Shown in pieces: positions 2,386 to 42,652 of a stretch of DNA of 64,000 bases. Below the pieces are notes generated by a model. That model saw only the letters and a list, made by a program, of their open reading frames with translations. It was not told the DNA's origin and ran no database searches. The position numbers and the translations under genes are program-made. The stretch comes from an uncultured Micromonosporaceae bacterium. GTDB taxonomy: Bacteria; Actinomycetota; Actinomycetes; Mycobacteriales; Micromonosporaceae. Where the stretch lies: NCBI GenBank assembly GCA_966211315.1, contig CBIHNN010000013.1:19225-83224 (forward strand), read 5' to 3'. Every line of letters starts with the position of its first letter. Position 1 is the first letter of the stretch.

Positions 2386-2414
2386 GCCGTAGGTGCCATT
2401 GTCGCCGTCGATCG

Positions 2415-2450
2415 CGGTGGCCATGTGGTCGAGCCGCCGCATGGCCACCG
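2415..2450 (+). promoter_or_regulatory. intercistronic stem-loop between the SBP and ATPase genes
   Basis: CGGTGGCCATG (2415-2425) and CATGGCCACCG (2440-2450) form a perfect 11-bp inverted repeat with a 14-nt loop, 30 nt after the SBP stop. Confidence 0.45.
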
Positions 2451-2526
2451 TCCTCGCGCAGACGCACCCCACAGACCCGTCCCGCCCGCGGGTCGCCGCC
2501 CTGGTGACAGTAGGCAAGGAGTAGAC

Positions 2527-27180: not shown

Positions 27181-28698
27181 ATGCGTTCACTGCGTTCGGC
27201 CGTCATATCGACCACGTTGGTCGTCGTCCCGGTCGCGGTCCTCGCCGCCGTCGCCGGCCCGGCAGCTGCCCATACACACCCCACGAACGTGGAGCTCATC
27301 GCGCCGGCCGTGGTGCAGGTGGAGACCTACGTCGAGGTGAACATCTCGCTCATCGAACACAACCGTAAGGGCGCGCACATCGGGCTGCTCCAGCAGCGGT
27401 ACTCACCGAAGCTGGCGTCCGGCAGTGGTTTCGCCGTCGACCCCGCCGGGGGTGTGGTCACGAGCCGGGAGGTCATCGACGTCGATCTTCGACGGGCGGA
27501 GATCTACGCGGTCAACCAGATATTCCATGAGCGCTACGGCGATGTCGCCCCGCTGCCCGCCGACCCGTTCGCGATGCAGTCGATCAACGGTGGTGACCCG
27601 GCCGACCAGATTCCCGGGCGCCTGCAGCAGTGCTACCGGCCCAACGCGACAGACATGACGGGCGGCTGCGTGGTCTTCAGCCGGCGGGTGATCAAGGTCC
27701 TGCCCTTCGTCACGTCCCAGCAGCAGTTCGGCAATCTACCGGCGACCGTGGTCACACCGGACGAGGGCCAGCCGGGTGACGTGGTGGTACTCAAGGTGGG
27801 AGCGAGCAGCATGCCGACGGCACGCCTCGCTACCGGGGTTCAGAGTGCCCCCTTCACGGTGCTGGGCTTCAGCACCACGCCGTCGAACGAGCAGTCGCTG
27901 CGCAAACTGGAGGGCCACTTCATCAAGGACGGGTCCACCGAGCTCAAGCGCGACCCCGAGTACAACGGTCTCGTCACCGGGATGGGGACCGGCCTCGCCG
28001 GTGGTCCGGTCGTGGGGGAGCGGGGCGACGTTGTCGGGTTCCTGATCCGGCGACCCGGCGCCGCGCCCACCGACCTGACCCTGGTGGAACCGGCGGCGAT
28101 CCGGGCGGCCCTTGACACCGCCAAGATCACTGCGCATTCCGGGCCGACCGACGGCGCGTACGAGAGCGCCCTGCACAACTACAAGAACCAGCTCTACGCC
28201 GCCGCGATCCCCAGCCTGTCGCAGACTCTGAAGCTCTACCCGGGGCACGCACTGGCGACCGAGGCGCTGGCACAGGCGAATCGCAAGCGGGGCACGGCCG
28301 ACGACCTGACCGGCCGGCCGGCGCAGGCCACACCCGGCCAAGGCGTCGACAAGCCCGACTTCCGGCGTACGGTGCTGCCGCTCGTGGTCGCCGGAGCCGC
28401 CCTGATCCTTCTGGCAGTGGCGATCGTGCTGCTGCTGCGCCGGCGGCGGTCCACCACGGCGGCGCCTGCGGACCCGGCGGGCGGCCCCCCGCCGGTCGTG
28501 GTGCCCGCGCCGCGACAGCCGTCGTCCGCCAGCCCGGGCCTCGGCGCGATGCGGCGGCAGGCGACGGTGCTGCGTCCGCGGACGGTGGGCGCTGGGCCGT
28601 CCAGCCCGCCGCCGCCCGCCACCGAGTGCCCGGTGTGCGGCGCCCCCGTCGTAGCGGCGCAGACGTTCTGCGGCGAGTGCGGGCATCGGCTGGGATAG
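27181..28698 (+). CDS. membrane-anchored trypsin-fold (S1C-like) pseudoprotease with TPR-like segment, TM helix, Pro-rich tail and C-terminal double zinc ribbon
   Basis: Signal peptide VVVPVAVLAAVAGPAAA. GSGFAVDPAGGVVTSREVI carries Arg where the catalytic His is expected. DVVVLKV has the Asp. GTGLAGGPVV carries Ala where the Ser is expected. TM VLPLVVAGAALILLAVAIVLLLRRRR, then CPVCGAPVVAAQTFCGECGHRL. Confidence 0.75.
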   Translation: MRSLRSAVISTTLVVVPVAVLAAVAGPAAAHTHPTNVELIAPAVVQVETYVEVNISLIEHNRKGAHIGLLQQRYSPKLASGSGFAVDPAGGVVTSREVIDVDLRRAEIYAVNQIFHERYGDVAPLPADPFAMQSINGGDPADQIPGRLQQCYRPNATDMTGGCVVFSRRVIKVLPFVTSQQQFGNLPATVVTPDEGQPGDVVVLKVGASSMPTARLATGVQSAPFTVLGFSTTPSNEQSLRKLEGHFIKDGSTELKRDPEYNGLVTGMGTGLAGGPVVGERGDVVGFLIRRPGAAPTDLTLVEPAAIRAALDTAKITAHSGPTDGAYESALHNYKNQLYAAAIPSLSQTLKLYPGHALATEALAQANRKRGTADDLTGRPAQATPGQGVDKPDFRRTVLPLVVAGAALILLAVAIVLLLRRRRSTTAAPADPAGGPPPVVVPAPRQPSSASPGLGAMRRQATVLRPRTVGAGPSSPPPPATECPVCGAPVVAAQTFCGECGHRLG

Positions 28699-28765: not shown

Positions 28766-30412
28766 ATGACCGGGCCCACCAAGCCCTTTCAGCTGGACGG
28801 CACGGAACTGGCCGGCTATCGCATCGAGACGCTGATCGGCCGCGGCGGGATGGCGTACGTCTACCGCGCCGCCGACAAGCGCCTCGGCCGTACGGTGGCC
28901 CTCAAGGTGCTGGCGCCGGACCTGGCCACGGACGCGGAGTTCCGGCGCCGGTTCCTGCGCGAGTCACGCCTGGCGGCGTCCATCGACCACCCCAACGTCA
29001 TCCCGATCTACGACGCCGGTGAGGCCGACGGGGTGTTGTACATCGCCATGCGCTACGTCGAGGGCAGTGACCTGAAGGCACTGCTGATCCGCGAGCAGAA
29101 GCTCGACGTCCACCGCGCGGTCGACATCTTCTCGCAGGTGGCGGACGCCCTCGACGCGGCACACGCACACGGCCTCGTGCACCGCGACGTCAAACCTGCC
29201 AACATCCTCATCTCCCCGGGCACGCTGTCACAGGGGCACGAACACGTCTACCTGAGCGACTTCGGAGTCACCAAGCGGGCGTCGTCGAAGTCCGGTGTCA
29301 CCGCCGCCGGCGTCATCGTCGGCACGATGGACTACCTGGCGCCGGAGCAGATCAGCGGCAAGACGGTGAGCGCCCGGACGGACGTGTACGCACTCGGCTG
29401 CGTGATCTACCAGGCGCTGACGGGGTCCGTCCCTTTCGTCCGCGACGACGACGCGGCGCTGCTCTGGGCGCACCTCGTCGAGACGCTCCCGCCCATCTCC
29501 CAGCATCGTCCCGACCTGCCGCCGGCGGTGCAGGACGTGCTGTTGAAGGCGACGGCGAAGGACCCCGAGGACCGGTACGCCAGCTGCGGCGAGCTCCTTG
29601 AGCAGCTGACCATGTCGCTGAGCGAGTACCGTCCGGCGGCGCGGGAGGACACCGCCGGACGGTACGCGCCCCCGGCCGCGATGCCGGCCGATCGGGTGCC
29701 CAGGTCACGTACCGGCGTGCCCACCGGTACGGGGCCAGCCGCCACGGGCGGCCGCAGCCTCGCCGCGGTGCCGATGCCGGTGCCGGTGCAACGGTCGCGC
29801 CGGGGGTGGATCTGGGCGCTGGTCGCGAGCGCGGTCGTGGCGGTGCTCGCGCTGGCCGGCTTCTTCCTCCTGCGCCCGCACGGCCCCGGTACGGCGCACT
29901 TCGCCGCGAACGACGTGGTGCCGGTGTCCTTCGACTACCCGGCGGACTGGCGGCAGGCACCGGAGGGCAACAACCTGGTGCTCTCGCCGCACGCCGACGC
30001 GTTCCTCGACCTGTTCACCCGACCGGACCAGCCGGACCCGTGGGGCAAGATCGGCAAGGTGTTGCGCGAGGACCGCGACGGGTCGATCGGGATGTACACC
30101 TTTTTCAACCAGATCGATTACAGCAATGGGGATCCGCGGCAGACGCTGCTGATCTACCTGCCGACCGGCGCGCGCTTCACGCCCGGGCAGGGCGAGGCGG
30201 CCCTCGGCAACGTCATGGCGATCCACCTGAGCGGGGTGGTCAGCGACCCGCGCGACAGTGCGACACAGCTGCGTTTCGAGTGCTACATCGCCCGCAGCGG
30301 CCCGCAGCAGCAGCGCAACATCCACATGATCTTGTTTTCTGATGCGAAGTCGTTCAACAGTCACCAGGCGACGTTCGACAGCATCGTGAGATCGGCTGTT
30401 CTGCCGGCGTAG
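28766..30412 (+). CDS. Hanks-type Ser/Thr protein kinase with one TM helix and a roughly 180-aa extracytoplasmic C-terminal domain
   Basis: GRGGMAYVY, VALKVL, HRDVKPANIL, SDFG, LAPEQ. TM WIWALVASAVVAVLALAGFFLL. Confidence 0.9.
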   Translation: MTGPTKPFQLDGTELAGYRIETLIGRGGMAYVYRAADKRLGRTVALKVLAPDLATDAEFRRRFLRESRLAASIDHPNVIPIYDAGEADGVLYIAMRYVEGSDLKALLIREQKLDVHRAVDIFSQVADALDAAHAHGLVHRDVKPANILISPGTLSQGHEHVYLSDFGVTKRASSKSGVTAAGVIVGTMDYLAPEQISGKTVSARTDVYALGCVIYQALTGSVPFVRDDDAALLWAHLVETLPPISQHRPDLPPAVQDVLLKATAKDPEDRYASCGELLEQLTMSLSEYRPAAREDTAGRYAPPAAMPADRVPRSRTGVPTGTGPAATGGRSLAAVPMPVPVQRSRRGWIWALVASAVVAVLALAGFFLLRPHGPGTAHFAANDVVPVSFDYPADWRQAPEGNNLVLSPHADAFLDLFTRPDQPDPWGKIGKVLREDRDGSIGMYTFFNQIDYSNGDPRQTLLIYLPTGARFTPGQGEAALGNVMAIHLSGVVSDPRDSATQLRFECYIARSGPQQQRNIHMILFSDAKSFNSHQATFDSIVRSAVLPA

Positions 30413-30476: not shown

Positions 30477-31136
30477 GTGGTGGAGTGGCCGATGTTGGAC
30501 TCGCTCGACCCGGAGGAACGGCGCCGATTGCTGAGCGTCTCCCGGCGGCGGCGCTTCGGCCGCAACGAGGTCGTCTTCCACGAGGGCGACCCGGCGAACT
30601 CGCTGCACCTGGTGGCGTCCGGACACGTCAGCGTCCGGGTGGCGACACCGGACGGTAACAGCGTGACCCTCGCGATCATCGGTCCCGGTCAGACGTTCGG
30701 GGAGCTGGCCCTGCTCGGCAGGCAGGCCCGGCGGGCCGCGACGATCACCGCTCTGGAGGGCTGCGAGACCTTGAGCCTGCAGAAGGAACGCTTCGACGAG
30801 CTGCGCCTCGGCCACCCGCGGATGGACCGGCTGCTGGCCGAGATCCTCGCCGACGAGGTGCGGCGGCTCGACGGCCGCCTGCTGGAATTCCTGTACCTGC
30901 CCGCGGACAAGCGGGTGCTGCGCCGCCTGGTGTCCCTGGCCAGGATGTACAGCGACGGTGGGCAGGAGACGGTGACGGTGCCGCTGACGCAGGACGTGAT
31001 CGCCGGCATGGCCGGGACCTCACGACCGACGACGAACCAGGCGCTTCGTGCCGTCGAGGAGGCGGGCGTCATCGCCATCGGACGGTCGAAGATCCATGTC
31101 ACGGATCTTCCGGGGCTGATGCGCCGCGCCCGCTGA
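30477..31136 (+). CDS. Crp/Fnr family transcriptional regulator (cNMP-binding domain plus HTH)
   Basis: Phosphate-binding cassette FGELALLGRQARRAATITAL. C-terminal HTH TQDVIAGMAGTSRPTTNQALRAVEEAG. The start may instead be ATG 30492. Confidence 0.9.
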   Translation: MVEWPMLDSLDPEERRRLLSVSRRRRFGRNEVVFHEGDPANSLHLVASGHVSVRVATPDGNSVTLAIIGPGQTFGELALLGRQARRAATITALEGCETLSLQKERFDELRLGHPRMDRLLAEILADEVRRLDGRLLEFLYLPADKRVLRRLVSLARMYSDGGQETVTVPLTQDVIAGMAGTSRPTTNQALRAVEEAGVIAIGRSKIHVTDLPGLMRRAR

Positions 31137-31817
31137 TCAGTCGTTCGCAGGCGCGCCGACCAGGCCGCAGGCGACCCGGTCACCGGAGTTGCCGCCCTGC
31201 TGCGTCGCCTTGATCGCCTCCGGGCTGTTGCCGGTGTACTCCTGCGCGGCCGTGCCCACCGGGACCCGGCCGAGGTTGTCCGGGTTGGCGTGCAGCACCA
31301 CGGCTCGGCCGGTGAGCTCCGCGCCGGACAGCCGGTCGGTGCGGAACTCCAGGGTGCCGCGTCCGTCGGCCCCCACGTAGATGCTCGGCAGATCACCGTT
31401 GTGCTCCGCGTGCTGGTGACCGCCATGGTCCAGGTGCGCGTCCGCGGAGACGAACCAGCTCCTCGACGGCTGGCCCGGCTGGGCCACGCAACCGTTGCCG
31501 TTGGTCGCATCGTCGTTGGCGTGCAGGTGGAACCCGTGGAACGCGGCCCTGCCGGCCATGCCCGCGGGCAGGGCGACGCGGGCGCGGACCACGACCCCCG
31601 GTCGCGCGTCGAAGAAGTCGACCCGGCCGACGGCACGTCCGTCGGCCAGGCTGAGGGTGGCCGAGCCGATCGCGCGTTCACCCGTGCGCCGGGCGATGAG
31701 CAAGGCGACCGCGGCTCCCGCGGAGCCGAGGAGAACAACGGTGACCAGCACCACGAGCAGGACGCTCCTCGAACGCCGATGCGCCGATGGGGGCGGGGTC
31801 AGGATCTGCTGCGCCAT
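31137..31817 (-). CDS. sodC: Cu/Zn superoxide dismutase family protein, membrane-anchored
   Basis: HGFHLHAN, HLDHGGHQHAEHNGDLP, AVVLHANPDN, and GNSGDRVACG match the Cu and Zn ligand contexts. N-terminal TM VLLVVLVTVVLLGSAGAAVALLI. Confidence 0.9.
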   Translation of the reverse strand: MAQQILTPPPSAHRRSRSVLLVVLVTVVLLGSAGAAVALLIARRTGERAIGSATLSLADGRAVGRVDFFDARPGVVVRARVALPAGMAGRAAFHGFHLHANDDATNGNGCVAQPGQPSRSWFVSADAHLDHGGHQHAEHNGDLPSIYVGADGRGTLEFRTDRLSGAELTGRAVVLHANPDNLGRVPVGTAAQEYTGNSPEAIKATQQGGNSGDRVACGLVGAPAND

Positions 31818-32028
31818 GGTTCACTTCCTCGGGACCGGGACCGGGGCCGGGCCGGGGCCTGAAGCCCACCGATTGCCTGTGGGATCAGCATCACGGCGGG
31901 CCCGCCGGGCGTCTGTTAGCGCGACGACACGGCATCGCAGAACGGGCGTACCGCATCGGACTGTCGGTCGGCCGTGCGTGCCGATGCATGCGATCGACGC
32001 GGGCCGGACCAGGTCCTAATCTATGTGA

Positions 32029-35000
32029 ATGCCAAGCTGCTCCTCGTGCGGCGCGGACAACCCCGACCGTGCGCGGTTCTGTATGGACTGCGGCACTCCC
32101 GTCACCGCGGACCAGGTCCGCGAGGTACGCAAGACCGTCACCGTCGTCTTCTCCGACGTCGTGGGCTCCACCGGACTGGGCGAACGGCTCGACCCGGAGG
32201 AGCTGCGCAGGGTCATGACCCGCTACTACGAGCTGGCCAATGCGGTGCTCACCCGGCACGGGGGCCGGGTCGGCAAGTTCATCGGCGACGCCGTGATGGC
32301 GGTGTTCGGCGTACCCGTGGTGCACGAGGACGACGCCCTGCGCGCCGTGCGAGCCGCCGCGGAGCTGCACGCCGGCCTCGCCGAACGCAACGCACAACTG
32401 GAGCGGGACTACGGCGTCGAGCTGCACCTGCGGACCGGCGTGAACACCGGCGAGATCGTGCTGGCCGAGACCTACGGCGGCCAGGACATCACCATCGGCG
32501 ACGTCGTCAACGTCGCCGCCCGCCTGGAGCAGCTGGCGGACCCCGGCGAGATCCTGCTGGGCGACGTCACCTACCGCCTGGTGCGCGACGCCGTGACCGC
32601 GGAGATGCTGGCGCCGCTGACGGTCAAGGGCAAGGGTGTGCCGGTGGAGGCGTGGCGGCTGCTGGCGGTCAAGCCGGACGCGGAGGGCCACGCCCGGCTG
32701 CTGGACGCCCCGCTGATCGGCCGGGAACACGAACTGGGGCTGCTGACGCGCGCGTTCGACCGCACGATCAGCGAGCGGACGTCGCATCTCGTCACGCTGC
32801 TCGGCACGGCCGGCGCCGGTAAGTCCCGCATGGTGCAGGAGTTGCTCACCTGGTCCGGCGGCCGGGCCCAGGTGCTGCGGGGACGCTGCCCCGACTACGG
32901 CGAGGGGATGACGTACCGGCCGCTCACCGAGGTCGTACGCCAGGCCGCCGGTATCAGTGCCACGGCTGAACCGGAGGAGGCGCGGCGTCGGATCGCCGCT
33001 CTCTTCCCGGCGGACGAACCCGGCTCCATCGTGGACGATCTCGCCGCCCTCGTCGGTGACGTCGCGACCGGAGCCGCGGTCGAGGACCTTCAGGTCGCAC
33101 TGCACCGGCTGCTCGGTGCCCTTGCCGCGAGCCGGCCGCTCATCGTCGTGCTGGACGACCTGCAGTGGGCCGAGGCCGCCCTGTTGGACCTGCTGGAACG
33201 CCTGACCGAGTGGCTCCGCGACATCCCGGTCCTGTTATGCTGCCTGGCCCGCCCGGACCTGCTGGAGATCCGGCCGGGCTGGGGCGGCGGGCGGGTCAAC
33301 GCCACGACACTGATGCTGGAACCGCTGACGCCCGAGGAGAGTGCAGCGCTGCTGGACAACCTGCTCGAACACGTCCGCGGGGCGGACCTGGCCCGGCGAC
33401 GGGTCGTCGAGGCGGCCGGCGGCAACCCGCTCTACCTCCAGGAGCTCGTCGGGATGCTGATCGAGGACGGCCTGCTCGCCCGCGGTCCGGACGGCTGGGT
33501 GGCCACCACGGACCTGTCGAAGCTGGACATTCCGCCGAGCATCGCGGCCCTGCTCGCCGCCCGGCTCGACGCGCTTCCTGCCGGCGAACGAGCCGTCCTG
33601 GAGCGAGCCAGCGTGATCGGGCCGGTGTTCCACCGGGTCGCCGTCATCGCGCTCACCCCGCCGGAGGCGCGTGGGCAGGTCATCACGTACCTGCTGAATC
33701 TGGTCCGTAAAGAGCTGATCCGGCCGGAGCCCTCCGCGCTGCTCGGCGAGAGCGCCCTGCACTTTCGCCACGTGCTGCTACGCGACGCGGCGTACCGGTC
33801 ACTGTCCAAGCGCGAGCGCGCCGAGCTGCACGAACGGCACGCCGACTGGCTGGAGGCGAAGCACGCCGAACGCGTCGCGGAGCCCGACGAGGTCATCGGG
33901 TACCACCTCGAACAGGCCTGTCGCTACCGCACCGGGTTCGGGCCGGTGGACCCCAGCACCGCCCACCTCGCCGAGCGGGCGGCCGCGCACCTGATCGGCT
34001 CGGGCAGCCGCGCCTTCGGACGCCGGGACATGCCCGGCGCGGCCAGCCTGCTCGGGCGCGGCGTGGCCCTGCTGCCGGCCGAGAATCCCGAACGCCTGGC
34101 CGCGCTGCCGGATCTCGCCGCCGCCCTGGTGGAGATGGGGGAGTTCGGCCGCGCCGAGGCCATCCTCGTCGAGGCGGTCGTCGCCGCCGACGAACGCGGC
34201 GACGAAGGGCTGCGCGCCGCCGCCGTACGGGTGCGGTCGGTGCTGCGCCTGCTCGTCGGGCCGCCACCGGATGCGGCGCCACCGGGCTCACCCGCGGGGA
34301 GCGCCCCCGACAGCCAGGACACCGCCGCCCTCGCCGCTGGCTGGACACTCGTACGGGACGTCCGCTGGCTGCCCCGCTCGGCCGCCGCGGCGGCGCCGAC
34401 GGCCGGCGCGGAGCGCTCCAGCGCCACGACCACCGCCGTCGGCGACTTCACCATGCTGGCGGTGCTCGGGCCGACGCCGGTGCGGGCCGCGATCGAGCGG
34501 TACACCGAGTACCTGCGCCAGCCGCAGCTCAGCAACACGTTCACGGTCCGGGTGCTGGGCGCCCTCGCCGGGCTGACCGCCATGGACGGAAACGTCGACG
34601 ACGCCCGGCGCCACCTCGACCAGGCGATGTCGATCCTCGGCCAGCTCGGCCTGCGGGTACGAGCCGCCGCGCTCTCCTACCTCGCAGGTCTCGTCGACCT
34701 GCTGGCGGACCAGCCCGCCGCGGCGGAGGAACGGCTGAGCCAGGCCTGTCTCGACTGCGAGCGGATGGGCGAGCGGTACGTGCTCGGCGCCCTGCTGTCG
34801 CTGCGGGCACAGGCCAGCTACGCCCTGGGCCGGTACGTCGAGGCCGTCCAGCTGGGCGAGGCGGCCGAACAGAGCGGGTTCGGCGACGACATCGTGGCGC
34901 AGGTGACGGCCAGCGGCGCCCGGGCCAAGGCGCTGGCGCGACTGGACTGCGGTGACGAGGCGGAGCCGCTGGTCCGGGAAGCCGCCGCCGCGGCAGCCGG

Positions 35001-35202
35001 GACGGGCCTCATCAACCTGGCCGCCGACGCCCTGCTGGACCTCGCCGACGTGCACGAGGCGATCGGCGACGGCGAGGCCGCCGCGCGGGCTGCCCGGGAG
35101 GCACTGGAGCTGTACCTGCGCAAGGGCAATGTGGTGTCGGCGCGGCGCACCCGCACGATGCTGGAGCGGCTGCGCCCGGCCGAACCCGGCACCGGGTCCT
35201 GA
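32029..35202 (+). CDS. zinc ribbon / class III adenylate-guanylate cyclase / STAND (AAA) NTPase / TPR multidomain protein
   Basis: N-terminus CSSCGADNPDRARFCMDCG. Cyclase motifs VTVVFSDVVGST, GKFIGDAVMAVFG, QDITIGDVVNVAARLE. P-loop LLGTAGAGKSRM and Walker B LIVVLDDLQWA. The C-terminal roughly 450 aa are helical repeats. Confidence 0.9.
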   Translation: MPSCSSCGADNPDRARFCMDCGTPVTADQVREVRKTVTVVFSDVVGSTGLGERLDPEELRRVMTRYYELANAVLTRHGGRVGKFIGDAVMAVFGVPVVHEDDALRAVRAAAELHAGLAERNAQLERDYGVELHLRTGVNTGEIVLAETYGGQDITIGDVVNVAARLEQLADPGEILLGDVTYRLVRDAVTAEMLAPLTVKGKGVPVEAWRLLAVKPDAEGHARLLDAPLIGREHELGLLTRAFDRTISERTSHLVTLLGTAGAGKSRMVQELLTWSGGRAQVLRGRCPDYGEGMTYRPLTEVVRQAAGISATAEPEEARRRIAALFPADEPGSIVDDLAALVGDVATGAAVEDLQVALHRLLGALAASRPLIVVLDDLQWAEAALLDLLERLTEWLRDIPVLLCCLARPDLLEIRPGWGGGRVNATTLMLEPLTPEESAALLDNLLEHVRGADLARRRVVEAAGGNPLYLQELVGMLIEDGLLARGPDGWVATTDLSKLDIPPSIAALLAARLDALPAGERAVLERASVIGPVFHRVAVIALTPPEARGQVITYLLNLVRKELIRPEPSALLGESALHFRHVLLRDAAYRSLSKRERAELHERHADWLEAKHAERVAEPDEVIGYHLEQACRYRTGFGPVDPSTAHLAERAAAHLIGSGSRAFGRRDMPGAASLLGRGVALLPAENPERLAALPDLAAALVEMGEFGRAEAILVEAVVAADERGDEGLRAAAVRVRSVLRLLVGPPPDAAPPGSPAGSAPDSQDTAALAAGWTLVRDVRWLPRSAAAAAPTAGAERSSATTTAVGDFTMLAVLGPTPVRAAIERYTEYLRQPQLSNTFTVRVLGALAGLTAMDGNVDDARRHLDQAMSILGQLGLRVRAAALSYLAGLVDLLADQPAAAEERLSQACLDCERMGERYVLGALLSLRAQASYALGRYVEAVQLGEAAEQSGFGDDIVAQVTASGARAKALARLDCGDEAEPLVREAAAAAAGTGLINLAADALLDLADVHEAIGDGEAAARAAREALELYLRKGNVVSARRTRTMLERLRPAEPGTGS

Positions 35203-35228
35203 TCCGCCGGTCACGGAAGGAGGCTGCG

Positions 35229-38200
35229 ATGGCGCAGCGCGTCGAGATCCGCGAGCTGGGCCGGCCGGCCCGGGTGGTGACCATCGCGGAGACCGTGGAG
35301 GTGGGACGTGACTGCGCCGGAATCGTGGTGTCCGATCCGGAGGTCTCGCGCCGCCACCTGACGCTGTCGTACGCCGACGAGACCCTGTCCGTCCTGGACC
35401 TGGGCAGCAGCAACGGCACGAGCGTCAACGGCGTACCGGTCACCGCCCAGACGCCGCTGCACGCGGGTGACGTGGTGGGGCTCGGCGATGCGCAGATCGT
35501 CGTGCTGCCACCCCGGGACGGGCCGGTACCGGTGGACGCTCCCACCGAGGCCATGGCGGGCCCGGACGGTGCGGTGCCGCCGGCGCCGCCGGAACCCGCC
35601 CGGACGCCGCCGCCGGCCCGTCCGGCGCTCGACGAGCTCGCCGTCCGGGACACCGACGCGGCAGTGATCCGGTACCGCCGGGGATCAGCCGGCGAACGCG
35701 CCGCCTCCGGGTACGCGTCCGCGGTGCGCCGTGCCCGCCGCAGGCTCGCCGGTCTGGGATCCGAACCCTGGGGCGTACGCCCGCAGATCTGCCTCGTCGA
35801 CCCGTTCCCCAGTCCGGACGACCCGGACGACCTGCTGGCCGCCGGCACCGTCGTGGACCCGGTCCACGGCGAGATCTGGATGGTGGTGACCGCCGACTCG
35901 CCCCCGGAGTCTCCGGAGCGCCCGTTGGCGCTGTTCTTCGGTGCCGGGCTGCCCGCCGCCGACGACGTGGCCGCCCTGGTGGAGGGCTACGGCCTGCACC
36001 TGGCCCGGTTGCCGTCGCCGGATGCGTTCCTGCGCGGTTCGGACCTGCCACCCCTGGCGGAGGCCGACGGTCAGCTGCGCGTCCTCATGGCGGTGTCGTT
36101 CGTCCGTCACCTGCTGGCTCGCGGCGGCGAGCCCGCGTTTCGGCAGCTGCTGGCCACCGCCCAGCCCGGGGCCGTCGACGCGGCGGCGGAGCAGGTCTAC
36201 GGGCTGCCTCTGTCGGCTCTCGAGCCGCGGTGGCGCGCGGGCCTCACGACCCCGCCGCCGCAGGCCCGCACCGCCGACTTCCTGCGGTTGACCGGTGCCT
36301 ACCTGCGCCGGCACGGGTGGTGGCTGACGCAGCTGGTGGTCTGCACGGTGGCCACCGTGGCGTTGGTGGTGCTCCTGCCGCTGGCGCTGCGCAGACTGAT
36401 CGACCAGGTCCTCCCGGCCCGGGACCTCGTTGCCGCGGTGCGGATCGTCGGGGTGCTGGCGGGCGCCCTCGTCGTCGCCGGGATGGCCGAGATCCGCCGG
36501 GTCCAGCTGTGGGCGAGGCTGAGCGTGACGTTCCTGCAGCAGCTGCGCGCGGACATGTTCGCGAAGCTGCAGACGCTCTCGGCGAGCTGGTACGCGGCCC
36601 CCGGCCGCGGCACGGACGTGCTGTCGCGCCTGCTGGCGGACGCCGCCATTCTCCAGTCCGGCCTGCACGCCGTACGCGATGCCGTCTCGCAGGGTGTCGT
36701 CCTGGTGGCCGCGACGGCTGTTCTCGTGGTGCTCAGTGTGCCCCTCGCGGCGACGGTGCTGCTGGGCGCCCTGCTGCTCGGCGCGCTCGGGCGTACGCTG
36801 GCCCGCCGCGCCGCCCGGCACGCCCACGATGCGCAGGAGCAGGTCACCTCCGTGGTGTCGGTGGCCGCCGAAAGCTACGCCGCGCACGCCCTCGTGCAGG
36901 CCTACGGGCTCGAAGCCGACCAGCGTGGCCGGTTCCAGCGGGTTCTCGACCACAACGCCGTCCGGCAGCGTCGCGCGCTGGTCTCCGAGAGCCTGCCCGG
37001 CGTCTGCGTCGATGGCACGGCCACCGCGTTGCGCCTCGCCGTGCTGGCGGTGGGCGCCTGGCTGCTGGTCACCGACCGGGTCACGGTGGGCGCCCTGGTG
37101 GCGGTGCTCGTGATCGTCGACCAGGTGGTCCGGCCGGTGTCCGCCCTCGCCATGCTCGGTGGACGACTCGACGCGACGAGGGGCGCCGTGGTCCGGGTCA
37201 CCGACATCCTCGCTGCCCAGAACGAGATCGCCGAAGCACCCGAGGCCGTCGACCTGCCCCGGCCGCGGCGGGAGATCCGGTTGTCCGGGATCGGGCTGGA
37301 AGCCGGACCGGACCGGCGCCCGCTGGCCGACGTGGACGCCGCCATCCGGGTGGGTAGCCGGGTGGCGTTCGTGGGGGCGCCCGGTACCGCGATCTCGTCG
37401 GTGGTGCAGCTGCTCCTGCGGTTCTGCGACCCGACGACCGGCGCTGTGCGCATCGACGGACAGGATCTGCGACACGTCACCGTCTCCTCGCTGCGCGGCC
37501 AGATCGGGGCCGTCCTGCGCGAGGCCGTGCTCGTCGACGCGACCGTGGCCGAGAACATCGCGCTGGGCGGCCCCGGCGCGGGTCACGTGGCGATCGAGGC
37601 CGCGGCCCGCGCCGCGGAGGCGCACCCGTTCGTCCTCACCCTCCCGCACGGCTACGACACCCGGGTGGGGGAGCGCGGCGTACGGCTCAGTGAGGCCCAG
37701 CGGCGCCGGATCGCACTGGCCCGGGCTCTGCTGCGGGACCCGGCCGTACTGCTGCTCGACGACGTCACCGCCGACCTGGACGTGCGCTCCGAACGGCTGT
37801 TCACCGCGACGCTCGCGCGGGTGGGCCGCGGCCGTACCGTCATCACCGCCACCCACCGTCTGACCACGGTGGTCGACTACGACCAGATCTTCCTGATGGA
37901 CGGCGGCCGGATCGTGGAGCGGGGCGGGCACCACGGGCTGCTCCTGGCCGCAGGCCGGTACGCCGAGCTGTGGGCCGAGCAGGCCCACACCGGCCCGGTG
38001 GAGCCGACCCCGTTCGACGTCGCCGCCGCCCTCACCCGGATCCCGCTCTTCGCCCGGCTCGACGGGCGCGGGCTCGACCGGGTCGCACGCTGCCTGCACG
38101 AGCAGCGGGTCGACCGGGACGAGACGGTACGCAGCGACGACGGCCGGTTGCTCCTGATCCGGCGGGGCAGGGCGCTGGTGCTCGGCCCGGACCCGGCCGG

Positions 38201-38471
38201 CCGGCTCACCACCGTCGCCCGGCTGGGTCCCGGGCAGGCGTTCGGGCTGGGCGGTGTGATGGGTGAGCGGACGGGCACCCTGCTGCGCGCGCTGCGACCT
38301 CTGGAGCTGCTGGTGCTGAGGTCGGAGGCGCTCGCCGCGCTCGCGCTGGAACTGCCCGCGGTGGCCGCCGCGCTGGACACCGCCCCGGGCCGGGCGGTGC
38401 CGGCGGGCGGCGAGCGGCTGTCCCAGCTGGCACTGCGGCCTCCCGTGTCGGGGGATCCCCTGCCCGGCTGA
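35229..38471 (+). CDS. FHA domain / unassigned domain / ABC-exporter transmembrane domain / degenerate ABC nucleotide-binding domain / cNMP-binding domain fusion protein
   Basis: FHA: VEVGRD...SRRHLTL...GSSNGTSVNG. Six TM helices of the type I exporter kind. The NBD reads GAPGTAIS (Walker A), VLREAVL (Q-loop), LSEAQ (signature), LLLDDVT (Walker B) and ATHRL (H-loop). The C-terminal cNMP domain reads IPLFARLD...GQAFGLGGVMGERTGTLLRA. It lies 26 nt downstream of the cyclase gene. Confidence 0.85.
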   Translation: MAQRVEIRELGRPARVVTIAETVEVGRDCAGIVVSDPEVSRRHLTLSYADETLSVLDLGSSNGTSVNGVPVTAQTPLHAGDVVGLGDAQIVVLPPRDGPVPVDAPTEAMAGPDGAVPPAPPEPARTPPPARPALDELAVRDTDAAVIRYRRGSAGERAASGYASAVRRARRRLAGLGSEPWGVRPQICLVDPFPSPDDPDDLLAAGTVVDPVHGEIWMVVTADSPPESPERPLALFFGAGLPAADDVAALVEGYGLHLARLPSPDAFLRGSDLPPLAEADGQLRVLMAVSFVRHLLARGGEPAFRQLLATAQPGAVDAAAEQVYGLPLSALEPRWRAGLTTPPPQARTADFLRLTGAYLRRHGWWLTQLVVCTVATVALVVLLPLALRRLIDQVLPARDLVAAVRIVGVLAGALVVAGMAEIRRVQLWARLSVTFLQQLRADMFAKLQTLSASWYAAPGRGTDVLSRLLADAAILQSGLHAVRDAVSQGVVLVAATAVLVVLSVPLAATVLLGALLLGALGRTLARRAARHAHDAQEQVTSVVSVAAESYAAHALVQAYGLEADQRGRFQRVLDHNAVRQRRALVSESLPGVCVDGTATALRLAVLAVGAWLLVTDRVTVGALVAVLVIVDQVVRPVSALAMLGGRLDATRGAVVRVTDILAAQNEIAEAPEAVDLPRPRREIRLSGIGLEAGPDRRPLADVDAAIRVGSRVAFVGAPGTAISSVVQLLLRFCDPTTGAVRIDGQDLRHVTVSSLRGQIGAVLREAVLVDATVAENIALGGPGAGHVAIEAAARAAEAHPFVLTLPHGYDTRVGERGVRLSEAQRRRIALARALLRDPAVLLLDDVTADLDVRSERLFTATLARVGRGRTVITATHRLTTVVDYDQIFLMDGGRIVERGGHHGLLLAAGRYAELWAEQAHTGPVEPTPFDVAAALTRIPLFARLDGRGLDRVARCLHEQRVDRDETVRSDDGRLLLIRRGRALVLGPDPAGRLTTVARLGPGQAFGLGGVMGERTGTLLRALRPLELLVLRSEALAALALELPAVAAALDTAPGRAVPAGGERLSQLALRPPVSGDPLPG

Positions 38472-38587
38472 GGACTCTGTCAGCAAGCGCACACACATAC
38501 CGTCGTGGTGCCCACAGCAACGCCGCTGCTGCGGGCGGACAGTGTTCCGGTAGCACTCATTCGCCGACACATTCGCACGAGGAGGCC

Positions 38588-38956
38588 GTGATGGTCACCT
38601 ACACCATCCAGGACCCGTCCCGCCGCGAGGTTCGCAACCGTCCGCCGATCGTCGTGTCCGGCGCTGAGACGACCGACGCCCTGACGGCAGCCCGGGCCGA
38701 GGCGCTCTTCACCAGCGACGTGTCGGTGAGTTCGACCCTCGACGGGGACGAGTTCAAGGATGCCATCCGGCAGGCGCTGGTGCGCCACGGCGGCGTCCGT
38801 GGATGCGCGGCCGAGGTGGCAGCGGCGTACGGCGATCACCCGGAGACCGCGGCGCCGCGCATGCGCTGGGCCCGGCAGATCGTGCAGTCGGTGTACGGCA
38901 AGCAGGTCGCGCACCGCTGGGCGACTCACCGCGTACTGCTCTCCTCGGTTCAGTAG
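38588..38956 (+). CDS. hypothetical small cytoplasmic protein
   Basis: AGGAGG lies 6 nt upstream of GTG-ATG. GC3 is high. 122 aa with no TM segment (…ALFTSDVSVSS…GVRGCAAEVAAAYGDHPETAAPRMRWARQIV…). I could not name a family. Confidence 0.65.
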   Translation: MMVTYTIQDPSRREVRNRPPIVVSGAETTDALTAARAEALFTSDVSVSSTLDGDEFKDAIRQALVRHGGVRGCAAEVAAAYGDHPETAAPRMRWARQIVQSVYGKQVAHRWATHRVLLSSVQ

Positions 38957-39150
38957 GTCTCCGGCGGCGTTCGTCCGCCCGTCGCGGTGCGTCGCACCAC
39001 GGGCCGAACCGACCGACATCGCGCCATCTGTAAGCGTGAATCTCCAAGAGGTGGCGTCACTGTGGCCTATGTACGGTGAGCAGACCAGCCAGGACCTCGG
39101 TTTCCGGACAGCCTGTCGCCGGTCGGAGGTCTGCCACGAGGTGAGGGTGC

Positions 39151-40155
39151 ATGGTTCCTCCGCTCATCCGTACCGGCTCCGTCGGGTCGAGCCGGACAGC
39201 CGGCGATCGTCGGGTGACCGCCGGTCGTCCGCGTCGCGGGGGCACACGGTGGCGGCGGTCGTCCGTGGCGGGACTAGCCGTGATCATGGTCGTCACCGCG
39301 TGCACCGGCAAACCAGCGAGCACCCCCACGCCCGGCGCCGGCTGGTCCGTGGTGTGGAGCGACGATTTCGACGGCAAGGCCAACACCGGCCTGTCGCGGT
39401 CGGACTGGCTGTACACCGTCGGCACGAGCTATCCGGGCGGGTCACCCAACTTCGGCACGGCCGAGGTCGAGACGATGACCGACAGCGTCGAGAACGTCTA
39501 CCACGACGGTGCAGGTCACCTCGCCATCAAGCCGATCCGCTCCAGCGCGGGCACGTGGACGTCCGGTCGGGTGGAGACCAGGCGCACCGACTTCGCCGCG
39601 CCGGCGGGCGGCATGATGCGCCTGGAGGCGACCTTGCAGCAGCCCAATGTCAGTGGGGCACAGGCCGTCGGGTACTGGTCGGCGTTCTGGGCACTCGGGG
39701 ACGCGGCCCGGCCGGTGGGCGCCACGAACTGGGCGCACATCGGCGAGTTGGACATCATGGAGAACGTCAACAGCCGCGACTCGGTGTGGCAGACGCTGCA
39801 CTGCGGTCCTCCGGTCGGGGGTCCCTGCAAGGAGCCGGACGGCATCTCCAGCGGGGAGCAGCCGTGCGCCGACTGCCGGACCGCCTTCCACACGTACGCG
39901 ATCGAGCTCGACCGCAGCGTCACGCCGGAGCAGCTGCGCTGGTACGTCGACCAGAGGAACACGTTCACCGTCAGGGCCGACCGGGTCGACCAGACGACCT
40001 GGGAGAAGGCGACCCGCCACGGTTTCTTCGCCATCCTGAACGTCGCCATCGGGGGAGTCTTCCCGACCAAGTTCGGTGGGCCACCCACCGCCGCCACCAG
40101 GTCCGGCGTACCGATGCTCGTGGATCGCATCGCGGTGTACACCCGCGGAAAATGA
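39151..40155 (+). CDS. glycoside hydrolase family 16 lipoprotein (beta-1,3 or beta-1,3-1,4-glucanase type)
   Basis: Arg-rich n-region plus lipobox LAVIMVVTAC. WSVVWSDDFDG. Catalytic motif GELDIMEN (E-x-D-x-x-E). FHTYAIELD. Confidence 0.85.
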   Translation: MVPPLIRTGSVGSSRTAGDRRVTAGRPRRGGTRWRRSSVAGLAVIMVVTACTGKPASTPTPGAGWSVVWSDDFDGKANTGLSRSDWLYTVGTSYPGGSPNFGTAEVETMTDSVENVYHDGAGHLAIKPIRSSAGTWTSGRVETRRTDFAAPAGGMMRLEATLQQPNVSGAQAVGYWSAFWALGDAARPVGATNWAHIGELDIMENVNSRDSVWQTLHCGPPVGGPCKEPDGISSGEQPCADCRTAFHTYAIELDRSVTPEQLRWYVDQRNTFTVRADRVDQTTWEKATRHGFFAILNVAIGGVFPTKFGGPPTAATRSGVPMLVDRIAVYTRGK

Positions 40156-40168
40156 GGAGTGTCGATCG

Positions 40169-41821
40169 ATGACCAGCGCATCCGGGCGTGTGCGAGACGA
40201 ACCGACCTGGCGTCCCATCCAGCGTTCCACCCGGTTCGCGGTGATGCTGGCCCTGGGCGTCACGTTGTTCTACATGATCTTCCTGCTGAATCCGGCGTAC
40301 CGGGGGAACCCCTGGATCTGGGGGCTGGTGCTCTTCGCGGAGGGGCTCACGATCTTCAACGCCCTCTCGATGTGGTGGACGGTGCTGGTCAACACGCCGC
40401 GCCCGGACCCGCCGGAGGTGTACGTGTGGCGCCGTCAACTGATCACCGGTGCGCTGAGACCCACGATCGACGTCTTCATCACGGTCTACGGCGAACCCCT
40501 CGAAATCGTCCTGGTGACGGTCCGCGCGGCGCGCGACATGGACGTGGGGCACTTCACGTGGGTGCTGGACGACGGCGACAGCGACGAACTGCAGGCGGCG
40601 TGCGCCGAGGAGGGCGTGGGGTACCTGCGCCGCACCGAGCACTCGCACGCGAAGGCCGGCAACATCAACGCCGCCCTGAGGCGTACGAACAGCGAGTTCG
40701 TGGTGATCTTCGATGCCGACCACGTACCCAGCCCGGACTTCCTGGTGCGCGCCCTGCCGCACATGCAGGACTCGCTGGTCGCGTTCGTGCAGACTCCGCA
40801 GGCCTTCCCGAGCGCCAGGGGCATCGTCGCCGAGGGCGCGGCGGCGTCGCAGCGGATGTTCTACGAGCTCGTGCTGCCCGGCCGGAACCTCTTCAACGCG
40901 GTGTTCTGCGTGGGCACCAACGTCATCTTCCGGCGGGCCGCCCTCAACGAGATCGGCGGCATGTACACGGCCAGCAACTCCGAGGACATCTGGACCTCGA
41001 TCGAGCTGCACCGGCGCGGCTGGCGCTCGTACTTCATACCGGAGGTCCTGGCCCGGGGTCTCGCCCCGGACAGCCTGCTGCCGTTCTTCAAACAGCAGTT
41101 CCGCTGGGCGTACGGCGCGTTCGAAGTGCTGCTGCGCGGTGGTCTGTTCCGCGGCAAGGGCCTCACCGTCGACCAGCGTTTCCAGTATCTGCTGGCCGGG
41201 ATCAACTACCTGCTGTCGGTCGCCGCGCTCATCCTGATGACTCTGCCGGCGGTGTACTTGCTGTTCGGCCTGAGCCCGATCCGCGCGGACATCGACGTCT
41301 GGCTCGTGCACTACGCGCCGTTCTACCTCCTGATCATGCTGGTCACGGTGCTGCAGCTGGGCGGTTTCAAACTCGCCGCGGTCGTCATGAGCATCGGCGC
41401 CGCACCGGTGCACGTGAAGGCGTTCTTCATGGCGATGTTCAAGCGCAAGGTCCGCTGGACCGTCACCAACGCCGGGCCGAGGGGTCTGCCCGGGGTCGAG
41501 CTGGTGCTGCCGCACGTCTTCCTGCTGTTGCTCAACGCCGTGGCCATCGCCGTCGGCATCAGCATGATGCCGCTGCGGGGGACCGACATCGTGGCAGTCG
41601 GGCTGTCCATCGCCTGGGCGACGATCTACGTCCTGATCCTGGGTCGGGTCATCGCCGAGGCGGTCATCGCGCCCCAGGTCATCAAGGAGCGTCTGGAACG
41701 GCGAAAGGCGAGCGCGCTGCTCGCCAGGGCGCTGCCGTGGCCGACTCGCCGGGACGAGGCTGACGCCATGGTCAGCTCGGCCATCGAGGAGTCCGCCGGT
41801 TCCTCCGCGCGAACGAGCTGA
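40169..41821 (+). CDS. processive family-2 glycosyltransferase, cellulose/curdlan-synthase-like beta-glucan synthase
   Basis: VFITVYGEP, WVLDDGDSDEL, HAKAGNINAAL, VIFDADHVP (DxD), QTPQAF, FCVGTNVIFRR, SEDIWTS (TED-like), and QQFRWAYG (QxxRW), with TM helices at both ends. GAGGAG RBS lies 13 nt after the GH16 stop. Confidence 0.9.
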   Translation: MTSASGRVRDEPTWRPIQRSTRFAVMLALGVTLFYMIFLLNPAYRGNPWIWGLVLFAEGLTIFNALSMWWTVLVNTPRPDPPEVYVWRRQLITGALRPTIDVFITVYGEPLEIVLVTVRAARDMDVGHFTWVLDDGDSDELQAACAEEGVGYLRRTEHSHAKAGNINAALRRTNSEFVVIFDADHVPSPDFLVRALPHMQDSLVAFVQTPQAFPSARGIVAEGAAASQRMFYELVLPGRNLFNAVFCVGTNVIFRRAALNEIGGMYTASNSEDIWTSIELHRRGWRSYFIPEVLARGLAPDSLLPFFKQQFRWAYGAFEVLLRGGLFRGKGLTVDQRFQYLLAGINYLLSVAALILMTLPAVYLLFGLSPIRADIDVWLVHYAPFYLLIMLVTVLQLGGFKLAAVVMSIGAAPVHVKAFFMAMFKRKVRWTVTNAGPRGLPGVELVLPHVFLLLLNAVAIAVGISMMPLRGTDIVAVGLSIAWATIYVLILGRVIAEAVIAPQVIKERLERRKASALLARALPWPTRRDEADAMVSSAIEESAGSSARTS

Positions 41822-41833
41822 AGGGCAAACGTC

Positions 41834-42652
41834 ATGGTCCAACCGGCGCATGCGCCATCCACTCCGCACCAGCCGTCCACTCCTGAGCAGTCGGCCATTC
41901 CTCACCAGCCGGCCGCGCCGTCCCCCGCACCGGCCACACCGGCACCCGGCCGGCCGCGCGGGACCTTCCGGTCATGGTGGTCCCGCTTCCTCGTCCTCAT
42001 CATGGTGGCCGGAGCCGGCTTCGTCTTCCTGCTCATCAGCAGCAACCGGGCGGCGCAGGCCGCCCGCGTCGACCTGGGCACCGTCACACTGACCACGCAG
42101 TCCATCCCGGTCGAGACGGCGCGGTCCGGGCAGATCACCGCTGTCTCGGTCGCCGGGCAACAGACGGTCAAGAAGGGCGACAAGCTCGGCACGATCGAGG
42201 TCACCACGACCAAGGCCGACGGCGAGCCCGTCGTGAAGACACTCACTCTGACCGCGCCGCACGACGGCATCGTCGTCGACGAACCGGTCACCGTCGGCAG
42301 CACGCTCCAGCCGGGACAGCCCTTCGTCGTGCTGTACGACCCGACGAGGTTGGAGTTCGTCAGCGACATCCCGCTGAAGAACGTGCCCACGCTCGCCCGG
42401 GGCATGATCGCCAGCCTGAAGGCGAACGGGCTCGACCGCACCGTCAGGGCCTCCGTCCAGCGGGTCGTGCCGCGGGTCCCCGGGGCCAACCCCGCCGCCG
42501 ATGACGTCAGTCCGGATGCGCTGCGACTGGTGCTGGCTCCCGTGACCCCGCAGGAGGTGCGTGGGCTCGTACCCGGCCTGCGGTTCAAGGGCACCGTCGA
42601 CACCCGTACGGGGGAGAGCGGCGCCCCGAAGCTCGTCGCCATGCCGGCGTAG
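41834..42652 (+). CDS. HlyD/membrane-fusion-protein-like protein with one N-terminal TM helix
   Basis: Pro-rich N-terminus, then TM FLVLIMVAGAGFVFLLI. Lipoyl-like hairpin halves GQITAVSVAGQQTVKKGDKLGTI ... LTAPHDGIVVDEPVTVGSTLQPGQPFVVLYDP. Lies 12 nt after the GT2 stop. Confidence 0.7.
   Translation: MVQPAHAPSTPHQPSTPEQSAIPHQPAAPSPAPATPAPGRPRGTFRSWWSRFLVLIMVAGAGFVFLLISSNRAAQAARVDLGTVTLTTQSIPVETARSGQITAVSVAGQQTVKKGDKLGTIEVTTTKADGEPVVKTLTLTAPHDGIVVDEPVTVGSTLQPGQPFVVLYDPTRLEFVSDIPLKNVPTLARGMIASLKANGLDRTVRASVQRVVPRVPGANPAADDVSPDALRLVLAPVTPQEVRGLVPGLRFKGTVDTRTGESGAPKLVAMPA

Follow-up and report, generated by a model that had tools for sequence, protein, structure and literature searches.

ABC exporters (ATP-binding cassette exporters) hold each ATP between the Walker A and Walker B motifs, the Q-loop, and the H-loop of one nucleotide-binding domain (NBD) and the signature motif of the other. 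Degenerate ATP sites in such exporters are understood as one of a pair, in which the degenerate site still binds ATP and the other is catalytic. Here, we describe a gene (35229..38471, + strand) in a 64-kb stretch of DNA from an uncultured Micromonosporaceae bacterium (the window) whose product is an ABC exporter homologue that has lost its ATP-site motifs on a single chain. The ABCB-type fold of this protein is shared with TM287/288, TmrAB, BmrCD, Rv1273c/72c, TAP1/2, CFTR, and MRP1. The degenerate site of heterodimeric exporters carries Walker B Glu-to-Asp, Q-loop, and signature deviations of the same kind as those in the window protein, keeps ATP binding, and pairs with a catalytic site (PMC7756269). 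However, those exporters are built from two different chains or halves, keep the Walker A Lys, bind ATP tightly, and have a catalytic second site, whereas the window protein is encoded by a single gene, lacks the Lys, and is degenerate in both halves of the site. Judged by its motifs, with both the Lys and the signature lost on one chain of a single-gene system, the window protein is not a member of this one-degenerate-site heterodimer class.

A second point of comparison is Rv1747 of Mycobacterium tuberculosis, an ABC-2/ABCG-type exporter in which the NBD comes first, two FHA domains are present, and the ATPase works. In contrast, the window protein is of the ABCB type, has its transmembrane domain (TMD) first, carries one FHA domain together with extra zincin-like and cNMP-binding-like (CNB-like) domains, and has no ATP site. 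The Rv1747/PknF system resembles the window locus in its N-terminal cytoplasmic FHA domain, its disordered Thr-containing linker, and the Ser/Thr protein kinase of the same operon (PMC3138270, PMC8339232). The likeness is limited to this FHA-plus-kinase logic. A third group, the yeast proteins Snf3/Rgt2 and Ssy1, are non-transporting transceptors, that is, transporter homologues kept as membrane sensors. The window protein would share this concept of lost transport and a retained membrane sensor or scaffold, although the yeast transceptors differ in being homologues of secondary carriers.

The window protein belongs to a rare actinobacterial FHA/zincin-like/ABC/CNB-like family, as seen from its domain order, its N-domain profile, and its synteny. 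Homologues from Cryptosporangium aurantiacum, C. arvum, C. minutisporangium, and Acidimicrobiia metagenome-assembled genomes (MAGs) have the identical five-domain order and are 41-50% identical to the window protein. Those of Cryptosporangium, annotated as "ABC transporter transmembrane domain-containing protein," lie in the same operon of trypsin-like, kinase, Crp, and cyclase-STAND genes as in the window. These homologues keep canonical ATP-site motifs (with a Q-loop exception in one protein, P0037), whereas the clade of the window protein has lost the motifs together with many TMD invariants. Thus, the window protein departs from the catalytic motifs of both the ABCB-type exporters and its own family. 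In the searchable literature, we found neither a description of this family nor an ABC exporter homologue in which both ATP sites are destroyed, an absence that is not proof. We put at roughly 0.6 the probability that the protein is a pseudo-transporter, a transceptor-like membrane signalling scaffold that acts in a kinase/cAMP cassette as a homodimer with a destroyed ATP site.

Architecture and ATP-site motifs of the window protein

The gene is an intact open reading frame (ORF) of 1080 codons. It starts 26 nt past the stop codon of the upstream cyclase gene and is preceded by a Shine-Dalgarno sequence, GGAAGGAGG (35215..35223, + strand), 5 nt before its ATG. All features of the protein given below are encoded on the + strand. 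The chain opens with an FHA domain (residues 1-95; 35229..35513; Pfam FHA 53.1 bits, match at residues 24-86), followed by a Pro-rich disordered linker (about residues 96-128; 35514..35612) and a cytoplasmic N-domain with a predicted zincin/gluzincin-like fold that has no HExxH (residues 129-345; 35613..36263). The TMD (residues 346-680; 36264..37268) is of the ABCB type (type I exporter, type IV fold), and all six transmembrane helices are present in the AlphaFold2 (AF2) model and the alignment. The NBD (residues 681-920; 37269..37988) has an intact fold and a degenerate ATP site. The chain closes with a cNMP-binding-like beta-barrel (residues 921-1050; 37989..38378), assigned from the model and from a Pfam cNMP_binding match at residues 973-1038 that, at 22.6 bits, falls short of the gathering score (27.5).

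By fold, the protein is an ABCB-type half-transporter homologue, with ABC_membrane (PF00664; residues 370-637, 86.7 bits) followed by ABC_tran (PF00005; residues 700-848, 70.3 bits) on one chain. NCBIfam models give only generic similarity to MsbA/HlyB-like exporters (MsbA_rel 328 bits against a cut-off of 780), well under all equivalog cut-offs, and the best PDB matches by phmmer are ABCB19 and P-glycoprotein. The full-length AF2 model has a mean predicted local distance difference test score (pLDDT) of 80.9, with values of about 90 for the NBD, about 85 for the CNB-like domain, and below 50 for the linker, which the model shows as disordered over residues 97-130. Third-position G/C (GC3) is 0.92 over the whole gene, and in the NBD the G/C content by codon position is 0.80/0.51/0.93. 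The same protein, identical or one to three substitutions apart, occurs in four independent public assemblies (P0001 and P0241-P0243), and it is therefore not an assembly or sequencing artefact.

We set the motif register by phmmer alignment to the solved ABCB19 and P-glycoprotein chains, which is gap-free through the NBD. Walker A reads GAPGTAIS (37374..37397), with GAPGTAISS opposite GASGSGKSS; Lys722 is replaced by Ile (codon 37392-37394, ATC) and Gly721 by Ala. The Q-loop region IGAVLREAVL (37503..37532) places IGAVLRE opposite IGLVQQE and has Arg for Gln764 (codon 37518-37520, CGC). The signature is LSEAQ (37686..37700), opposite the LSGGQ of the canonical family. Walker B and the D-loop span 37749..37781, where LLLDDVT stands opposite LLLDEAT, with Asp for Glu845 (codon 37761-37763, GAC), and is followed by ADLD in place of the family's SALD, in which the Leu-Asp is kept. 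A fifth element, the adenine-stacking aromatic of the A-loop, is also lost (GLEAG at 37293..37307, against xFSYx in the canonical family). Two elements are retained: the H-loop ATHRL (37848..37862), with His876 kept opposite VAHRL, and the X-loop TRVGERG (37659..37679). The X-loop forms the contact between NBD and coupling helix in type I ABC exporters.

An initial annotation of the window, made from the sequence alone, had described the NBD as degenerate at four catalytic motifs at once, with the H-loop intact. The gap-free alignment bears this out, and the motif and codon coordinates that it gave are exact at every position. A shifted alignment that would restore the Lys, Gln, and Glu, which that annotation named as the case against itself, occurs in neither the phmmer nor the family alignment, and the comparison with PF00005 that it called for is the ABC_tran match given above. 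Its list of four losses was right as far as it went and did not include the loss of the A-loop aromatic. The annotation had further argued that a homodimer would have two non-consensus sites. This holds, in that the Walker half and the signature half are both degenerate on the one chain.

Spread of the motif loss and constraint on each domain

A search of 5.8 billion proteins found about 80 clusters with the same five-domain architecture. Outside the clade of the window protein, about 70 relatives with this architecture have canonical motifs, the sole non-consensus motif residue in the family alignment being a Q-loop Gln-to-Pro change in P0037. The near-full-length members from P0007 on read GP[TS]G[AS]GKS[STA], LSGGQ[RK], hhhDE[AV]T, [SA]ALD, and [VI][TS]HRL; L006, from a Solirubrobacteraceae MAG, is one family member with canonical motifs. 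A hidden Markov model (HMM) of the N-domain (residues 129-345) matched 189 representatives among 1.84 billion, 51 of them at E <= 1e-30. The top match is P0001 (8e-106), which is 99.9% identical to the window protein and represents its 50%-identity cluster. Almost all matches lie in proteins of about 1000-1280 amino acids, with the domain at the same position. Since the matches are few and consistently placed, the family is both rare and architecturally coherent. Nearly all full-length 50%-identity representatives with the N-domain are canonical at the ATP site.

Two distant N-domain-bearing representatives without an FHA domain, P0332 and P0343, show a second, independent, and different degeneration. 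These keep the Walker A Lys and the Q-loop Gln, have FSTPYR or FGLVQR as signature, D-D at Walker B, and Gln at the H-loop, which would fit the classical pattern of binding without hydrolysis.

By its GlpX homologues, the source organism falls within an uncultured Actinomycetes lineage, the best named matches being a Pseudonocardia MAG (76%), a Mycobacterium sp. entry (74%), and Mycobacteriales MAGs (70-71%). The degenerate set comprises the window protein, five further clusters that are 52-81% identical (P0002-P0006), and near-identical copies. These sequences are monophyletic in a neighbor-joining tree, with the topology (((window,P0002),P0003),(P0004,P0005)),P0006. Root-to-tip distances are 1.44-1.61 in the degenerate clade and 1.39 +/- 0.06 in canonical members, a mild acceleration. 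Because C. aurantiacum carries a canonical gene in the same operon, the degenerate protein is an orthologue, not a paralogue, of a canonical ATPase, and the degenerate gene descends by orthology from a gene for a canonical ATP-driven exporter.

We find that motif loss is clade-wide and that the replacement residues differ by lineage. In the window protein, Walker A is GAPGTAIS, position 764 is Arg, the signature is LSEAQ, the Walker B acid is Asp, and the H-loop residue is His. Its sister P0002 has GAPGASTS, Arg, LTDLQ, His, and His at these same positions, and P0003 has GASGAGMS, His, LTDAQ, Asp, and His. The pair P0004 and P0005 has the Walker A sequences GPAGAG-TS and GPEGAG-TS and the signatures LSQGQ and LSLGQ, respectively, with Arg at position 764, Glu at Walker B, and Arg at the H-loop in both. 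The basal P0006 has GATGATRA and LAGSQ and is otherwise near canonical, keeping the Gln, Glu, and His. Loss of the Walker A Lys is the single change common to all members, position 722 being Ile, Thr, Met, deleted, or Arg. The initial annotation had asked whether the substitutions are conserved among orthologues: the loss is, while the replacements are not. Since the replacement residues differ between lineages, the pattern indicates relaxation rather than a newly selected ligand site. The Walker A Lys was probably lost first. Inactivation would have begun at Walker A and the signature, and the other ATP-contacting residues would then have relaxed independently, with later decay of the A-loop, the Q-loop, the Walker B Glu, and, among some members, the H-loop residue as well.

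These differences bear on whether the altered pocket might serve as a non-canonical nucleotide sensor, binding ATP or another nucleotide without hydrolysis and acting as a ligand-dependent dimerization switch. The glycine-rich loop is partly kept (GxxGxx-S), the window protein retains Asp844, the D-loop Leu-Asp, and the H-loop His, and in other ABC proteins a degenerate site serves as a stable hinge that binds ATP (PMC7756269). However, a new ligand site under selection would be expected to carry a conserved motif of its own, and here the pocket residues vary within the clade, at position 722 as well as at the H-loop (Arg in P0004 and P0005), and the A-loop aromatic is gone. We regard a sensor of this kind as improbable. 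What selection maintains in the NBD is the fold and not a new site.

To estimate constraint, ratios of nonsynonymous to synonymous substitution rates (dN/dS) were computed by the Nei-Gojobori method (NG86), with bootstrap intervals, on codon alignments of the lineages that postdate the loss. These approximate values are lowest in the N-domain (0.10-0.15), followed by the CNB-like domain (0.19-0.38), the FHA domain (0.25-0.50), the NBD (0.28-0.43, with 95% bootstrap upper bounds of no more than 0.61), and the TMD (0.32-0.44). The disordered linker, at 0.8-1.6, serves as a near-neutral internal control. Over the whole gene, dN/dS is 0.30-0.36, inside the range of the neighboring genes (Crp-family regulator, 0.10-0.17; cyclase, 0.16-0.28; superoxide dismutase, 0.30-0.48; and kinase, 0.25-0.62). 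The NBD had been described at the outset as maintained by selection rather than decaying, on the strength of its clean frame and high GC3; its GC3 of 0.93 and its dN/dS uphold that description.

The simultaneous loss of several catalytic motifs resembles that of a dying enzyme gene, and a pseudogene in slow decay, or an assembly artefact, could account for it. Set against this, intact ORFs of 1065-1084 amino acids without frameshifts or stops occur in seven lineages down to 52% identity. Furthermore, dN/dS is well below 1 while the linker of the same gene is near 1, the ribosome-binding site is strong, GC3 is 0.93, and the same sequence recurs in the four independent assemblies. We consider decay or artefact extremely improbable.

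Constraint is unevenly distributed along the protein. Taking as invariant those positions that are at least 95% invariant among canonical family members, we find that all six degenerate proteins keep 11/11 in the FHA domain (100%), 44/48 in the N-domain (92%), 9/13 in the CNB-like domain, 52/86 in the NBD (60%), and 24/57 in the TMD (42%). The 13 NBD invariants lost in at least four of the six proteins cluster at the A-loop, Walker A, the Q-loop, the signature, and Walker B/D-loop, while the X-loop VGERG, RVAFVG, LLLD, and the D-loop Leu-Asp are retained. In the TMD, 32% of invariants are lost in at least four of the six. Mean identities between degenerate and canonical members, set against those among canonical members, are 0.46 versus 0.45 for the FHA domain and 0.58 versus 0.59 for the N-domain, but 0.39 versus 0.59 for the TMD and 0.55 versus 0.69 for the NBD. 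The whole transport core is thus relaxed, not the ATP site alone, and the N-terminal regulatory domains are not.

The conserved operon and the question of a partner chain

A canonical half-transporter encoded elsewhere could in principle rescue the protein, giving a heterodimer with one active and one degenerate site. Pairs with one degenerate site are common (TM287/288, TmrAB, BmrCD, and Rv1273c/72c), their hallmark being a Walker B Glu replaced by Asp (PMC7756269, PMC7544095, PMC12038006). However, the known degenerate chains keep a canonical signature and the Walker A Lys and bind ATP (PMC7756269), whereas the window chain has lost the Lys and the signature glycines, so that neither composite site would be normal. 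Even a canonical partner would meet the degenerate LSEAQ of this chain in its own site, which would therefore not be normal. The signature sequence also changes without evident constraint from one orthologue to the next and is therefore unlikely to complete the active site of a partner. Furthermore, the ancestral canonical orthologue is a single-gene system.

No partner was found nearby. The observation made at first reading, that no second half-transporter gene is adjacent, stands: tblastn with canonical TMD and NBD sequences finds only this gene and an unrelated NBD in the window, and there is no second type I half-transporter in the 64-kb window or in the conserved operon of the six related loci. 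Likewise, no other ABC_membrane protein occurs among the Pfam-annotated genes surrounding the ABC gene. The other NBD of the window (2311-3198, + strand) has no exporter TMD next to it and is unrelated to the ABC gene. On this evidence, we think rescue by a partner chain quite improbable.

The ABC gene stands in a conserved block. In C. aurantiacum, the canonical operon has the order Trypsin_2-like/Ser-Thr kinase/Crp/Guanylate_cyc-AAA_16/FHA-ABC. The same order is found in the window and at the P0001-P0006 loci, the insertion of a Cu/Zn superoxide dismutase gene being the only difference. In the window, the first gene of the block (27181..28698, + strand) was identified from Pfam and synteny and encodes a Trypsin_2-like protein that is anchored in the membrane and ends in a zinc ribbon on the cytoplasmic side; its Trypsin_2 score is 27.4, just under the threshold of 27.6. 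It is followed by a receptor-type Ser/Thr protein kinase (28766..30412, + strand) with intact VALK, HRDVKPAN, DFG, and APE motifs and one transmembrane helix near residue 350, and by a Crp-family regulator (30477..31136, + strand; cNMP_binding and HTH_Crp_2), assigned by Pfam and synteny. The superoxide dismutase gene (31137..31817) lies on the opposite (-) strand between the crp and cyclase genes; it occurs only in the window and at the P0001-P0005 loci and is absent from the P0006 and Cryptosporangium loci.

The gene immediately upstream of the ABC gene (32029..35202, + strand) encodes a protein with a zinc ribbon, a class III nucleotidyl cyclase, an AAA_16 STAND NTPase, and TPRs, in which the catalytic motifs and the P-loop GTAGAGKSR are intact. 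Its N-terminal zinc ribbon is encoded at 32029-32110 (+ strand). Because this adjacent protein keeps its own P-loop, the loss of ATP motifs is specific to the ABC gene and does not reflect a general loss of NTPase motifs. The pair of cyclase and ABC genes is conserved in all seven loci that have the trypsin-like/kinase/Crp/cyclase form of the operon. The gap between the two genes is 4-27 nt at all these loci, which suggests that they are co-transcribed. A consensus scan of 31000-39200 returned no promoter or terminator sites, such a scan being uninformative for a high-GC actinomycete.

More distant canonical members have another context (L004, L089, and L090), in which the ABC gene overlaps the gene for a small GAF protein and is followed by a subtilase gene. 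A kinase lies near these ABC/GAF/subtilase loci, and in L004 the subtilase is fused to a protein kinase. A serine protease, a kinase, and a sensor domain for small ligands thus recur alongside the family.

A nucleotidyl cyclase beside a membrane protein with a CNB-like domain also recalls a Pycsar-like pair of cyclase and CNB-membrane effector. This candidate was set aside, since PADLOC gave only generic domain matches: the cyclase matched PycC at 68 bits, at domain level only, and the ABC protein had no effector match. The syntenic chromosomal operon, with its Crp-family regulator and kinase, extends from the degenerate clade (down to 52% identity) to C. aurantiacum (49% identity), which speaks against its being a defence island.

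Directly downstream of the ABC gene lies a small conserved ORF (38588..38956, + strand; 122 amino acids) that matches no Pfam or PADLOC family. It is also present at the P0002-P0005 loci and in the near-identical P0001 assembly, with the core …AARAEALF.SDVS…GGVRGCAA.VA..YGDHPETA.PRMRWAR…, whereas the ORF that occupies this place at the P0006 locus bears no relation to it. Further downstream is a trio of GH16-like, GT2 (cellulose-synthase-like), and HlyD-like genes (39151-42652, + strand). We rejected these as functional partners of the transporter, because outside the window the trio occurs at the near-identical P0001 locus but at none of the P0002-P0006 loci and so stands apart from the conserved module. 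Elsewhere in the window, a divergent gene pair encodes a TPR-CHAT (caspase-like) protein (12579-15308, - strand) and an S8 subtilase (15443-16756, + strand).

Retained domains and the proposed role of the protein

The regulatory parts of the protein are those that the degenerate clade has kept best. In the FHA domain of the window protein, the phospho-Thr-binding residues GR, SRxH, and NGT are intact in the alignment. Within the adjoining linker, a T-[EQ]-x-M motif (PTEAM at 35541-35555, + strand, residues 105-109) is conserved as TEAM or TQAM in the window protein, P0002, and P0003 and as TQPM in P0004 and P0005. FHA domains prefer a hydrophobic residue at the pT+3 position. By analogy, the motif could serve as a kinase target and as a pT+3 site for FHA binding. 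It recalls the phospho-linker described for Rv1747 (PMC8339232).

The N-domain is modelled by AF2 with a pLDDT of 90.1. Comparing the N-domain with the PDB by sequence profile returned no match, and it was the fold search alone that found the zincin-like fold: the top Foldseek matches in the PDB are all zincin metallopeptidase catalytic domains, including M1 aminopeptidases, M9 collagenases, and the M60-like AM0627 (probability 0.9-0.99, TMq about 0.5). From the modelled fold and the sequence, the N-domain is likely to be a pseudo-peptidase domain. We suggest that its conserved "EG" is equivalent to the third-ligand helix of gluzincins.

The phosphate-binding cassette of the CNB-like domain is non-canonical throughout the family, reading FG[VL].A[LV][LM]G.[QE]..G against FGE…PR[ST]A. 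Even in canonical members, cyclic nucleotides are thus only putative ligands of this domain.

Action of the window protein as a primary-active pump is very unlikely, judging from these motifs. As a pseudo-transporter, it would form a homodimer without normal ATP binding or hydrolysis at either site and would not pump. Under this proposal, the gene would have been retained because other parts of the protein still work: the FHA domain, the N-domain, and a dimeric TMD-NBD scaffold. The phospho-Thr-binding FHA domain would be the likely link to the kinase of the operon. The highly constrained zincin-like N-domain would be kept in function, and the dimeric, membrane-anchored TMD-NBD scaffold would keep the X-loop/coupling interface. 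A scaffold role in a signalling cassette is favored by the intact motifs of the kinase, the intact phospho-Thr residues of the FHA domain, the conserved T-[EQ]-x-M motif, and the tight linkage to the cyclase gene.

Several points weigh against this proposal. The deduction that ATP binding is lost draws on what is known of mutations at the Walker A Lys and at the glycines of the signature. The partner search covered the window and the six related loci, and a paralogous partner could be encoded elsewhere in the genome. Extreme GC3 bias compresses dS in the NG86 method, which makes the absolute dN/dS values approximate; the true values would therefore, if anything, be lower. The clade is sampled by six 90%-identity clusters, without a close canonical DNA pair for a like-for-like dN/dS. 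Lastly, purifying selection clearly still acts on the TMD and NBD, and the X-loop has been retained, a pattern that would fit ATP-independent translocation or gating equally well.

This last point leads to the main alternative to a scaffold, an ATP-independent conduit in which the TMD-NBD core would act as a facilitator or channel gated by the FHA domain and phospho-Thr, by the CNB-like domain, or by the cyclase. Such a change could be likened to the shift of CFTR from pump to gated channel. In its favor are the purifying selection on the TMD and NBD (dN/dS 0.3-0.45), the retention of the X-loop VGERG and of many structural NBD positions, the presence of all six transmembrane helices, and the regulatory domains that flank the core. 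However, the loss of 32% of TMD invariants speaks against a conserved ancestral translocation pathway, the phosphate-binding cassette of the CNB-like domain is non-canonical, and a conduit of this kind has no precedent in the searchable literature. We judge it unlikely.

More broadly, and tentatively, the protein might be an ABC exporter turned into an ATP-independent membrane device, either a receptor or anchor subunit for the class III cyclase-STAND protein or a conduit gated by phospho-Thr or a cyclic nucleotide. If so, the ATP engine would have become dispensable, and what was kept would be the FHA domain, the zincin-like domain in its pseudo-peptidase form, and the TMD-NBD dimer as a chassis. 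The protein would then be a naturally occurring pseudo-ABC-transporter in which both sites are dead, and it would parallel in a prokaryote the transitions from pump to channel or regulator in CFTR and SUR.

Here, we present an orthologous series within one rare family and in the same operon, running from the canonical proteins of Cryptosporangium through early loss in P0006 to complete loss. This series makes testable the ATP-independent functions of the ABC chassis, the order in which its motifs decay, and the roles of the FHA and zincin-like domains. It also draws attention to an uncharacterized signalling cassette that combines a receptor Ser/Thr kinase, a cyclase-STAND protein, a Crp-family regulator, and an ABC protein.

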